Of a DNA stretch of 64,000 nucleotides, positions 12,305-14,017 are shown piece after piece; positions within the stretch are counted from its first letter, which is position 1, and every line of letters starts with the position of its first letter. The translations under genes were made by a program, and so were the position numbers. The notes beneath the pieces are model-generated. The model worked only from the letters and a program-made list of their open reading frames with translations. It did no database searches and was not told where the DNA came from. Source of the stretch: Escherichia phage EP_H11; the sequence record OP688485, one strand, 5' to 3'.

Positions 12305-12637
12305 TTAGCGCTTAAAGATGCCCATAATAGCATCGTTAAACAATCCTAACAGTACTGTAATAATCGCTAACGCACCGCTCCAGAATTTAATCTTGTCGTT
12401 TACTTCCTTAATCTCCTTCCTTAGATTATCCTGCTCATCTTCAAGGCCAGAAATCTTCTTAGACATGAAATTCTGTGCAACGACTAGCTCGCGGATATCC
12501 GCTAATATCTCCGTCTGCTTACGAGAAGACTCCATAAGTTGATCAAGGATTACTCCCTGAAACTTCTGGTTAGATTCAAGTCTCGCTAGCCTATCGAGTT
12601 GGCGCCCACCGAACTCAGACTCTTCCCTCTCGCGCAT
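12305..12637 (-). CDS. C-tail-anchored coiled-coil protein (lysis-associated?)
   Basis: 110 aa, charged heptad-like region then C-terminal hydrophobic helix FWSGALAIITVLLGLF; sits beside the spanin/holin/endolysin genes. Confidence 0.45.
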   Translation of the reverse strand: MREREESEFGGRQLDRLARLESNQKFQGVILDQLMESSRKQTEILADIRELVVAQNFMSKKISGLEDEQDNLRKEIKEVNDKIKFWSGALAIITVLLGLFNDAIMGIFKR

Positions 12638-12647
12638 ACAAGATTCC

Positions 12648-12857
12648 TCACTTCTGATTGCTCTCTAGGCAATCTATATAAGACACCAATTTAGCTAATT
12701 CAGCGTTAGGAATCCTGATCCCGTCTTTTTCCGCTATCGCTGCTATCGGTGGACGGTCGCATCTTATCTTCGGGGTCTGCATCTGCATTGGTAGGCTGTT
12801 GCAGCTTACCAAACTTAGACTCCCAAGCACCAGTAGGGTCGTTTTTAATTTCTTCAT
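12648..12857 (-). CDS. o-spanin-like outer-membrane lipoprotein
   Basis: Signal peptide with lipobox LVSC; 69 aa; overlaps the upstream ORF in another frame as in overlapped spanin pairs. Confidence 0.5.
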   Translation of the reverse strand: MKKLKTTLLVLGSLSLVSCNSLPMQMQTPKIRCDRPPIAAIAEKDGIRIPNAELAKLVSYIDCLESNQK

Positions 12858-12936
12858 CTTTCTTCTCCCGAAAGCGCACCTGCATGGCAGACACGAGTAG
12901 GGTAATAAGCCGAAGAATAAGAGTAAGAGCTTTCAT
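12706..12936 (-). CDS. i-spanin candidate
   Basis: N-terminal hydrophobic helix ALTLILRLITLLVSAM then charged domain; overlaps the lipoprotein ORF. Confidence 0.35.
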   Translation of the reverse strand: MKALTLILRLITLLVSAMQVRFREKKDEEIKNDPTGAWESKFGKLQQPTNADADPEDKMRPSTDSSDSGKRRDQDS

Positions 12937-13355
12937 ATCTTACTCCTTTTACCCTCTGGATTTTTGATCAGAGACTTGCCGTAATCAAGGGCATCAATAG
13001 CCTGGGTGGCCTTACTCACGAGATGTGGATCATCCTGAGTTTGGACTACATCGGAAAGAACCTGCTTAGCCTTATCCATGGTCTCTACTTTCTGCTCGTC
13101 CTGGGTAGCAGCTTTCTTATCTACTTTGGCAGCAGATTTAGGCAAGTTCAGAGCGATGAAGTTTAAAATGGACGCTGCATAACCGAGGTATTTCTTAACC
13201 ACCCCAATGTATTCGTCGTCTTTAGTGTTAGGAGTTATTTTAGCGATCTTCTCGAGAGCTTGCACCAATACTGATGCGAGGCCGATTATAGCTAGTGCAA
13301 GAGCGATGTAATCATCGATCTTGGATCCATCAAGTACATCCAGGATATTGTCCAT
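12933..13355 (-). CDS. putative holin
   Basis: Two hydrophobic segments (YIALALAIIGLASVLV, ASILNFIALNL) and charged C-terminus; immediately downstream of the endolysin. Confidence 0.45.
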   Translation of the reverse strand: MDNILDVLDGSKIDDYIALALAIIGLASVLVQALEKIAKITPNTKDDEYIGVVKKYLGYAASILNFIALNLPKSAAKVDKKAATQDEQKVETMDKAKQVLSDVVQTQDDPHLVSKATQAIDALDYGKSLIKNPEGKRSKI

Positions 13356-13369
13356 TATTAATCACCATA

Positions 13370-14017
13370 TTAAAGAGTTAAAGTCTGATTTGCTCTGCGT
13401 AGTACAGGCAGTCTGTCAGGTACGGTCGCCACAGACCCATTTATCTTCTGGGTTACTTTGGTGAATGCGTCCTGATCTGCTAATTGATTTAATTTATTTT
13501 TATCCCAGAACCACCCTGCAGTAAGCATGATCGTTTCGAAATCAGTCTCTACTAACTCTGGATCTTCTACCAAACGGTCATCCCCAAAGATACTCAAGGA
13601 GGCCTCTCGATAGTTAGCTCTACCAGTTAGATGCATTGCCCCACGGCCAATATACTTATACCCGTCTCCGCTAGCCGGAGTTCCGTTACCCATGCGATTA
13701 GCATACACCTGATTGGCTAACTTCTCAGGGTCGCGTATGTAAGCATTAGCATTAAGCTTACCAGGTTCACCTCGAAGAGTAAATCTACTAGGCCACACAG
13801 CTACCAGACGAGACGCAGAGGTATAATACAGGGACTCCACAAACTTAGTGTAATCCCTAGTTTCAAAGGCAGTCTGCGCCATAAAATAGCGCAGACGACG
13901 ATTGGTATTGATACCATAACGCTCGATAGTAGTATTAATGGCGGGTAGCAGCTTTTCCAGCACTTCTGTTGAAGTTGTTGGGAGGAACTTCTTCAGCTGG
14001 TCAAGTGTAACGCTCAT
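13370..14017 (-). CDS. endolysin, GH19 (chitinase-like lysozyme) family
   Basis: GDGYKYIGRGAMHLTGRANY signature of family-19 glycoside hydrolases; 215 aa. Confidence 0.8.
   Translation of the reverse strand: MSVTLDQLKKFLPTTSTEVLEKLLPAINTTIERYGINTNRRLRYFMAQTAFETRDYTKFVESLYYTSASRLVAVWPSRFTLRGEPGKLNANAYIRDPEKLANQVYANRMGNGTPASGDGYKYIGRGAMHLTGRANYREASLSIFGDDRLVEDPELVETDFETIMLTAGWFWDKNKLNQLADQDAFTKVTQKINGSVATVPDRLPVLRRANQTLTL

Follow-up and report, generated by a model that had tools for sequence, protein, structure and literature searches.

The lysis cassette of Escherichia phage EP_H11: a putative SP6-type pair of overlapping spanin genes and a widespread family of candidate tail-anchored accessory proteins

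The EP_H11 lysis cassette

Lysis cassettes of Gram-negative phages are usually described in terms of a holin, an endolysin, and a spanin. The cassette of Escherichia phage EP_H11, located within a 64,000-nucleotide (nt) stretch of sequence record OP688485 (hereafter the window), is ordinary in most of these respects and is distinguished by an uncharacterized accessory protein, here called D', that most likely acts with the holin at the inner membrane. The other products are an endolysin of the glycoside hydrolase family 19 (GH19) type, a candidate holin (protein A), and two proteins encoded by overlapping genes, B and C, both of which are real, dual-coding genes and belong to the SP6/K1E-type spanin group. 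D' is a member of a large and widespread family of proteins in Gram-negative phages that bears no Pfam, NCBIfam, or PHROG name, and none of these collections supplied an informative name for A, B, or D'. In GenBank, A, B, and D' of EP_H11 are named ‘hypothetical', and C is without annotation in both EP_H11 and the relative vB_EcoM_IME392 (IME392).

The five genes occupy the final 1.7 kb of the late operon, a long minus-strand unit that runs from about 50 kb down to 12305 in a greedy open reading frame (ORF) map of the window. A first-pass annotation had proposed all five ORFs, and each was recovered at its minus-strand position and found intact in relatives, namely in IME392 (94% nt identity over the region) and in four Logan contigs (L003-L006; about 80% amino acid [aa] identity). 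In a hydrophobicity scan, A, B, C, and D' were the only small membrane proteins of the late operon, with no transmembrane (TM)-containing product encoded upstream of the endolysin. Shine-Dalgarno sequences precede B (AGGAG, 6 nt before the ATG), C (GGAG), and D' (GAGGA, 7 nt before the ATG), and the stop codon of A overlaps the start codon of B as ATGA in EP_H11.

The overlapping genes B and C

Protein C (69 aa; 12648-12857, minus strand) has the features of an outer-membrane spanin (o-spanin) lipoprotein. Its signal peptide consists of an n-region with KK-K, a hydrophobic core, and the lipobox L-V-S-C followed by Asn at +2 (MKKLKTTLLVLGSLSLVS|CNS...), so that a search by lipobox regular expression and hydrophobic core finds the lipobox cysteine and no Asp at +2, as in o-spanins. 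The mature protein of 51 aa contains two further Cys residues and a C-terminal ‘ELAKLVSYIDCLE' helix. The start of C (12857) lies 79 nt into gene B (76 aa; 12706-12936, minus strand) in the +1 frame, and C overlaps B for 152 nt before extending 58 nt past its end. B itself starts 434 nt downstream of the endolysin gene, and B and C, adjoining other lysis genes, thus display the overlapped architecture recognized for spanin pairs (Summer 2007; Kongari 2018).

Homology to known o-spanins emerged through relatives of C. The exact sequence of C has no copy in the protein collection, and C alone gave a marginal PHROG match (phrog_3198 ‘Rz-like spanin', 0.005). A context-guided search, however, located blocks of A-, B-, and C-type genes after the endolysin gene in Aeromonas phage phiARM81mr and many Aeromonas prophages, and also in Vibrio phages 1.205.O and PVP-XSN and other IMG/VR contigs. 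The lipoproteins of these blocks match phrog_8971 or phrog_456 ‘Rz-like spanin' at E-values down to 1.8e-21 and are related by tblastn to the gp45 group of SP6, K1E, and K1-5, and relatives of C are annotated as o-spanin or Rz1-like in MR4, X29, Nufs112, and ECBP5. When a hidden Markov model (HMM) was built from 10 such lipoproteins with the EP_H11 group left out, its sole match among 441 window ORFs was C (E 1e-4, computed with Z = 100,000).

Substitutions among EP_H11, IME392, and L003 indicate that both frames of the overlap are under selection. Over the signal peptide of C, substitutions leave the B protein unchanged and cause conservative replacements in C; over mature C, about half are synonymous in C and most replace residues in the tail of B. 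The sole indel within the overlap, of 6 nt, is in frame for both genes, and nowhere is the cassette more conserved than in the overlap, with 14% divergence from L003 versus 25-38% elsewhere. The spanin pair proposed by the first-pass annotation is therefore upheld by its architecture, by the dual-coding pattern of substitution, and by the homology of C to an o-spanin family; the textbook features of an inner-membrane spanin (i-spanin), on the other hand, are missing from B.

B opens with a hydrophobic helix (residues 4-20; Kyte-Doolittle [KD] hydropathy 1.98) that includes Arg9, replaced by Gln in relatives, and continues with the conserved sequence ‘EKKDEEIKNDPTGAWESKFGKLQQP' and a variable acidic, Pro/Ser-rich tail. 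This layout recurs in B-type proteins generally, which share the N-terminal helix, a Lys/Glu/Gln-rich stretch, the motif ‘DPxx(A/W)Fxx(H/K)F(G/N)', and a variable acidic tail; across the homologue alignment, conservation is confined to the DPxxxFxxxF core. An HMM of 11 homologues from outside the EP_H11 group (SP6, Nufs112, Vibrio, and Aeromonas) had B as its sole match among the 441 ORFs, with a reported E-value of 1 at Z = 1e5 that becomes about 4e-3 once rescaled to the 441-ORF set. The equivalent ORF of Pantoea phage Nufs112 is annotated ‘Rz-like', and in PVP-XSN the B and C genes no longer overlap. B is the conserved overlapping partner of the SP6/K1E o-spanin family, and hence an i-spanin as judged by position and conservation; it may form the membrane-spanning subunit of the pair.

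A further B-type ORF, of 72 aa, was observed in SP6 (L067, AY370673; 1386-1604), where it overlaps gp45 (MSRLLEVVAGLLGLLLAYKKKQ...DDPADWFADHF...) and is absent from the SP6 annotation. SpaninDB assigns to the o-spanins of SP6, K1E, and K1-5 a ‘separated' partner, the 49-aa TM protein gp44 encoded upstream, with the curators' remarks ‘Too short' and ‘Too small?' on the gp44-type i-spanin, and does not list the overlapping ORF (Kongari et al. 2018). The catalogued pairing of the SP6, K1E, and K1-5 spanins may thus be wrong.

Among Aeromonas prophage-like contigs, L018, L019, L020, and L052 (about 3222-3404) encode a B protein whose N-terminal helix is amphipathic and carries four to five charges (e.g., MNAILKLLELFADELMRAL). 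The overlapped o-spanin gene and the upstream A gene are kept in these contigs despite the charged helix.

The tail-anchored protein D' and its family

D' (110 aa; 12305-12637, minus strand) is encoded by the last gene of the late operon; this gene begins 10 nt past the stop codon of the o-spanin gene and, in EP_H11 as in its relatives, forms one transcription unit with the lysis genes. The first-pass annotation had described a protein with a single C-terminal TM helix, and this is borne out by hydropathy, which places the only hydrophobic segment at residues 83-99 and, in the family comparison, its hydrophobic core at 85-101, and by an AlphaFold2 (AF2) model built with eight family sequences, in which D' forms one continuous helix from residue 3 to 108 (predicted local distance difference test [pLDDT] score 72.6). 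The anchor comprises the last ~25 residues, ‘KFWSGALAIITVLLGLFNDAIMGIFKR'. No signal peptide was found in D'; its N-terminal domain opens with the family motif ‘DRLARLE' and is charged, helical, and coiled-coil-like, with 16 Lys/Arg and 18 Asp/Glu among 85 residues. The gene differs from that of L003 by 52 synonymous versus 29 non-synonymous changes and is under purifying selection.

The extent of the family became visible in steps. A word-indexed search with D' retrieved the EP_H11 group only, the addition of a distant homologue from Vibrio that tblastn had identified (NVP1123O_64) extended it to a Vibrio clade, and an exhaustive HMMER search of 1.84 billion representatives yielded 129 family proteins at E <= 1e-3. 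About 77 of these 129 are 56-135 aa long with the same C-terminal TM layout, in which an ‘(E/D)RLAxLE' helix is followed by a coiled coil of variable length, an aromatic residue, ‘GG.A', a hydrophobic core of 16-20 residues, and an ‘F.D.I.G.F' tail. Across the family, the 12 residues before the TM segment hold 3.6 Lys/Arg versus 1.5 in the 7-residue C-tail. All eight close relatives of D' show sub-threshold similarity to the XhlA family PF10779 (best 2.7e-5), and D' itself matches the XhlA-like phrog_1193 ‘hemolysin' at 0.0016. Pattern scans with an EP_H11-centred alignment returned nothing, and a broad alignment (A7) contained no conserved stretch. One exact-pattern scan of 2.9 million contigs picked up ESNQKFQGV, residues 21-29 of D', in a 374-aa protein that is encoded on a viral contig of low GC content with no relation to EP_H11 (L002, 4278-5402); this match was judged to be a retrieval artefact, probably a coincidence, and no sign of homology.

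In several phage groups, relatives of D' are found among lysis genes. L063 has the order tail fibre, D'-type, canonical i-spanin, o-spanin, A-type, and L064 the order tail fibre, D'-type, A-type, canonical i-spanin, lipoprotein; together with the EP_H11 group, these make three independent lineages in which the D' family co-occurs with A. The B3-like transposable contig L075 (2079-4219) and its relatives L076-L090 place a D'-type gene in the slot occupied in Mu by the releasin gene, gp25, within the order M15 endolysin, 2-TM holin, embedded i/o-spanin, TraR-like zinc finger, 72-aa D'-type protein, DUF1804, and large terminase. Four contigs of 100-128 kb (L059-L062, two of them 103 and 128 kb long; about 2950-4270) share the layout of EP_H11 and encode A, a 68-74-aa N-terminal-TM protein (B'), and an overlapped lipoprotein (C'), followed in the D' slot by a 109-aa coiled-coil protein with an N-terminal TM segment and then by a multi-TM protein of 157-160 aa. 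The 109-aa protein is similar to Mu gp25, with 26% identity in an alignment that takes in the TM segment (BLASTP 5e-5).

Protein A, the candidate holin

Protein A (140 aa; 12933-13355, minus strand) has an acidic N-terminus and a single hydrophobic helix at about residues 16-34 (KD 2.44 over residues 17-33), after which come a basic ‘EKIAK', a conserved ‘AK(I/V)TPxxKDDE' turn with an invariant ‘TPxxKDD(E)', and an amphipathic helix ending in ‘LAxNLP'. A helical C-terminal extension of 65 residues is peculiar to the EP_H11 group. The AF2 single-sequence model, of low confidence (pLDDT 61.8), has helices at residues 14-40, 47-75, 82-106, and 110-131. A second TM domain (TMD) in helix 2 was considered and rejected, the hand-calculated mean hydropathy of ~1.2 being under the TM threshold and Lys/Asp occurring there in relatives. 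The distribution of charges predicts an N-out/C-in topology. Close to its 3' end (window position 12951; about 7350 in L001), gene A has a 1-nt indel that alters the last residues and the stop, giving 140 aa in EP_H11 versus 138 aa in IME392, where a 3-nt gap separates A from B.

A matches phrog_9685 (1e-15), a PHROG without assigned function, and its 173 homologues are all named ‘hypothetical' and include none with a Pfam domain. In Aeromonas and Vibrio phages, the genes for homologues of 54-80 aa come directly before the B/C pair. The order small TM protein, B, and C is also that of SP6-like podophages, and there the TM protein is the only one of the cassette; in L063 and L064, the A-type and D'-type proteins are the only non-spanin membrane proteins near the canonical i/o-spanin genes. 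In having at least one TMD and a charged hydrophilic C-terminus, in being encoded beside the endolysin, and in the lack of another candidate, A fits the generic, descriptive definition of a holin. Because A to D' are the only small membrane proteins of the operon, and because of the slot shared with SP6 and the context in L063 and L064, ‘holin' is the most economical reading of A, by position, shape, and elimination. The label of putative holin given earlier is to that extent plausible, but the phrog_9685 family is uncharacterized everywhere.

The endolysin and the context of the cassette

The endolysin (215 aa; 13370-14017, minus strand; WBU87728.1, named ‘endolysin' in GenBank) matches PF00182 (GH19; 7.5e-8) and the endolysin family phrog_181 (1.8e-59), so the GH19 assignment of the first-pass annotation is well supported. 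The hydrophobicity scan revealed no N-terminal hydrophobic segment, signal, or signal-arrest-release (SAR) helix; the enzyme is therefore soluble and needs a membrane lesion to reach the wall. In holin-endolysin systems, the soluble endolysin reaches the wall through such a lesion.

Two further wall hydrolases are encoded in the window. A 945-aa protein of the late operon (32508-35345, minus strand) has a GH19 domain at residues 702-821 (PF00182, 2.1e-9) and has the octapeptide LTGRANYR in common with the endolysin. It probably degrades the wall as part of the virion, in which case EP_H11 has two GH19 enzymes. Just beyond the terminator that ends the lysis cassette, the convergent plus-strand operon includes the gene for a SleB-like cell-wall hydrolase of 120 aa (11096-11458, plus strand; PF07486, 2.5e-20; phrog_938), a third peptidoglycan hydrolase that is kept in L003-L006.

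The complete minus-strand order is tail-fibre-like gene, 58-aa ORF, endolysin, A, B, C (overlapping B), D', and terminator hairpin. The tail-fibre-like protein has 1014 aa (14228-17272, minus strand) and lies upstream of the 58-aa ORF (14042-14218, minus strand), which separates it from the endolysin gene; this small ORF is kept in IME392, L003, and several Logan/ENA contigs and showed neither a hydrophobic segment nor a family match. On the other side, a plus-strand gene block (58 to 12251 in the ORF map) is convergent with the late operon. Between the convergent gene ends at 12305 (minus) and 12251 (plus), facing the plus-strand gene, sits a GC-rich intrinsic terminator hairpin (12261-12302, minus strand) with a 13-bp stem (GGGACUCAU...AUGAGUCCC) and U5, whose RNA fold of -19.3 kcal/mol (z = -4.84) was equalled in stability by none of 200 shuffles. 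This hairpin closes the late/lysis operon. Within the cassette, a consensus scan found no minus-strand terminator-like site, and its four promoter-like matches in the region, of which two are minus-strand sites close to the beginning of A, do not exceed what shuffles give (mean 5.3).

A model for lysis and the alternatives to it

The cassette can be read as a lysis module in which A is the hole-former, D' acts alongside it, and B and C are the spanins, a reading in which we place middling confidence. The soluble GH19 endolysin would accumulate in the cytoplasm, a step that is well supported. A, a single-TM protein of predicted N-out/C-in topology, would form the membrane lesion, while tail-anchored D', its cytoplasmic helix oligomerizing, would work together with A at the inner membrane as a further subunit of the holin or, alternatively, as a factor for timing or release, on the model of XhlA/XhlB and gp24.1/gp26. 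The GH19 enzyme would then get to the wall, and after wall degradation B and C would disrupt the outer membrane, where C is presumably lipid-anchored, with B as its inner-membrane or membrane-associated partner.

A number of observations weigh against this account. The topologies are derived from hydropathy and charge counts. A has no similarity to characterized holin families, and the Aeromonas and Vibrio phages with A-B-C blocks also carry a multi-TM holin upstream of the endolysin, so that A might instead act as an antiholin or in some other way. In B, the periplasmic coiled coil of a classical i-spanin is missing: its tail of 55 residues has five Pro, three Gly, and mostly Asp/Ser/Lys-rich low complexity (the SP6-type entries of SpaninDB likewise have 0 predicted coiled-coil segments), and in the Aeromonas contigs the four to five charges of its helix argue against a transmembrane anchor. 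As regards D', neither it nor any other family member reaches the gathering score of PF10779 (D' scores 12.2 bits, E 0.22, versus 34.7), and profile comparisons by hhalign were not significant, either of the D' family with SPP1 gp24.1 (E 0.12) or of alignment A2 with Mu gp25 (E 0.33). Run over 4155 ORFs, the D'-family HMM gave 0.017 for gp24.1 and 0.003 for gp25, and also 0.012 for SPP1 gp24, a coiled coil devoid of a TM segment. Homology of D' to gp24.1 or gp25 was accordingly rejected, the profiles being not significant and no better than for the TM-less coiled coil. Finally, in the Vibrio siphophages phiHSIC (ORF34), 1.177.O (gp49), and L3 (gp7), the D'-like gene comes after a large tail-fibre gene, and the endolysin gene is on the opposite strand at a distance of 1.5-2.5 kb; in Vibrio phage 1.123.O it stands alone; and in many IMG/VR relatives it is flanked by a large structural gene and the terminase genes. 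It is therefore not established that the D' family as a whole serves in lysis.

The roles of A and D' might be exchanged, with D' as a single-TM hole-forming holin and A as an antiholin, regulator, or releasin-like factor. EP_H11 has D' in place of the multi-TM holin found upstream of the endolysin in every Aeromonas or Vibrio A-B-C phage; 6 of 43 sampled members of the D' superfamily (alignment A3) match phrog_689 ‘holin' (up to 1.1e-7) and one matches phrog_10340 ‘holin/anti-holin'; and the predicted N-out/C-in topology of A, with a cytoplasmic domain, is that of the Mu releasin gp25 (PMC9239132). Yet phages of the L075 type carry their D' relative beside a conventional 2-TM holin, proteins of the XhlA/gp24.1 type are not lethal alone (PMC6316719), and D' itself matches no holin family above noise, which leaves this exchange of roles unlikely.

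We consider it similarly doubtful that D' is no lysis protein and instead a passenger of the late/tail-fibre operon, active for example in superinfection exclusion or envelope modification. The gene contexts in phiHSIC, L3, 1.177.O, and many IMG/VR contigs, to which pYD38-B can be added, are of this kind, with the homologue after a tail-fibre-like gene or before the terminase and no adjacent endolysin; so is the single-gene unit of 1.123.O, and genes with a PF10779 domain are found beside cI in Mannheimia lambdoid prophages (PMC4553209). Set against these are the co-transcription of D' with the lysis genes of EP_H11, before the operon terminator, the embedding of its homologues among holin and spanin genes in L063, L064, and L075, and the fact that the site after the tail fibre also holds XhlA-type lysis genes in Gram-positive phages (PMC8878798).

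It is very improbable that B is a non-coding by-product of the lipoprotein gene, which would reduce the spanins of the cassette to an o-spanin-like lipoprotein. B has no Pfam, NCBIfam, or PHROG match of its own, its C-terminal half evolves freely, and it is unannotated in IME392; but the ORF survives nt divergence of ~20-30%, including the in-frame 6-nt indel, and the conserved core of 25 residues is invariant, changes there being synonymous in B and amino-acid-changing in C. Homologues with the same motif, moreover, overlap the same o-spanin family in unrelated phage groups, non-overlapping PVP-XSN also having one, and B is preceded by a strong Shine-Dalgarno sequence (AGGAG) and translationally coupled to A.

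The idea that D' is a non-canonical i-spanin of type I, with a C-terminal TMD and its coiled coil in the periplasm, that pairs with C, possibly via the hexapeptide LESNQK, or that C and D' form a split or recoded unimolecular spanin (u-spanin), was raised in principle by Kongari et al. and draws on the position of the gene directly after that of the o-spanin and on the helical coiled-coil character present in D' and missing from B; it is scarcely credible given that D' has no signal peptide and its highly charged 85-residue domain would need export, that the family occurs beside canonical i/o-spanin pairs (L063, L064, L075) and in phages without an adjacent lipoprotein, that the conserved overlapping partner of the C family is B, and that C and D' have no conserved frame relation. 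A fusion, read-through, or frameshift joining C to D' was rejected on the same ground, D' being in the +1 frame in EP_H11 and IME392 and separated from C by two stops (TAA-GGAGTC-TAA) in L003.

LESNQK itself, which the first-pass annotation had noted as a possible shared interaction motif, is indeed present in both C and D' and is encoded with different codons at four of six positions; with C and D' taken by themselves, a hexapeptide would be shared by chance with a probability of 5.5e-4 (200,000 shuffles), a value that favours the pairing of D' with C. However, 28 hexapeptides are shared among the 187 window ORFs, the D' copy is LEAGQK in the L003 homologue, and the LE of C belongs to the o-spanin family motif ‘YIxxLE' whereas that of D' belongs to ‘RLAxLE'. 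The repeat is therefore best read as chance, and its interpretation as a conserved interaction motif was abandoned.

Comparison with known lysis systems

The proposed module, in which A would make the lesion, D' would act with it, and B and C would serve as spanins, has counterparts among characterized systems, and D' is likened to them by architecture and position, with no claim of homology. XhlA of Bacillus PBSX and gp24.1 of SPP1 are, like D', proteins of 80-110 aa with a coiled-coil N-terminus and a C-terminal TM segment after an aromatic residue, and their genes belong to lysis cassettes that follow the tail genes and also encode a separate small holin-like protein. D' has the same N-terminal coiled-coil helix and single C-terminal TM segment, and its cassette supplies a separate candidate holin and an endolysin in the order endolysin - A - B/C - D'. 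In the pairs XhlA/XhlB of PBSX and gp24.1/gp26 of SPP1, each protein is harmless alone and the two are lethal together (PMC6316719; PMC5589764). The differences are that D' comes from a phage with a Gram-negative host and its similarity lies under every curated threshold, that partner A has one TM segment versus two in the holin partner of XhlA and gp24.1, and that the D' gene follows the spanin genes, whereas XhlA-type genes of Gram-positive phages come after the tail genes and before the holin and endolysin (PMC8878798).

The second counterpart, the releasin gp25 of Mu (DUF2730, PF10805), resembles D' in being a membrane-tethered protein of ~100 aa with a cytoplasmic helical domain, an ‘ER(V/L)xxLE' motif, and a spanin-distal gene. 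Its TMD is N-terminal and its orientation N-out/C-in with a cytoplasmic domain (PMC9239132), whereas the TMD of D' is C-terminal; D' has no DUF2730 match. Mu releasin, furthermore, acts with a SAR endolysin, whereas the EP_H11 endolysin is soluble and leaves nothing to ‘release' in the Mu sense. The unimolecular spanin gp11 of T1 provides a third point of reference, in that a hypothetical join of C and D' would combine an N-terminal lipoprotein signal with a C-terminal TMD. C and D' are, however, encoded separately, each behind a Shine-Dalgarno sequence of its own, and do not form a spanin of this type, and the periplasmic domain of T1 gp11 is predicted to be beta-sheet versus the one long helix of D' (PMC6139136).

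For the spanins, the closest comparison is with SP6, K1E, and K1-5. The o-spanin gp45 of these phages has, like C, 69 aa, a matching lipobox position, and a C-terminal ‘YI(L/D)xLE' helix, and the 5' half of its gene is overlapped by an ORF of 58-83 aa with an N-terminal helix and a ‘DPxxWFxxHF'-type motif. A small TM protein is encoded directly upstream in both groups, and the module adjoins the endolysin. They differ in that the identity of C to the SP6-group lipoprotein is low (26-32% to the Aeromonas and Vibrio relatives) and that the upstream TM protein of SP6, gp44, is unrelated to A and its phrog_9685 family.

We suggest, more tentatively than the module itself, that the D' class is a Gram-negative counterpart of XhlA/gp24.1 and a topological mirror of the Mu releasin, working with A as a two-component system, and that SP6-type o-spanins use the short protein B. 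Were D' to represent a class of tail-anchored lysis factors, E. coli would offer a tractable model for membrane-tethered cytoplasmic helices that trigger or time permeabilization, and EP_H11 could reveal whether a two-part holin mechanism of the XhlA type is also at work in diderm hosts. EP_H11 could likewise settle the real i-spanin of the SP6/K1E group; if the suggestion holds, current spanin catalogues mis-pair SP6-type o-spanins, whose partner would be the very short, non-coiled-coil B. The operon brings three uncharacterized families of small proteins (phrog_9685 protein A, the SP6-type partner B, and XhlA-like D') together in a phage of E. coli, and with it functions could be assigned to families that have members in hundreds of phages and prophages of Aeromonas, Vibrio, and enterobacteria. 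A practical consequence concerns the databases, as the o-spanin gene is missing from the EP_H11 and IME392 GenBank records and its overlapping partner from the SP6 record.

Extra small membrane proteins can be essential for lysis, as recent work has shown for the Mu releasin and for Lcc6 of LambdaSo, and the findings on the EP_H11 cassette contradict no current model of lysis. As a whole, the cassette adds a member to known kinds of system; three functionally uncharacterized families of small proteins travel with it, most notably the widespread tail-anchored D' family.

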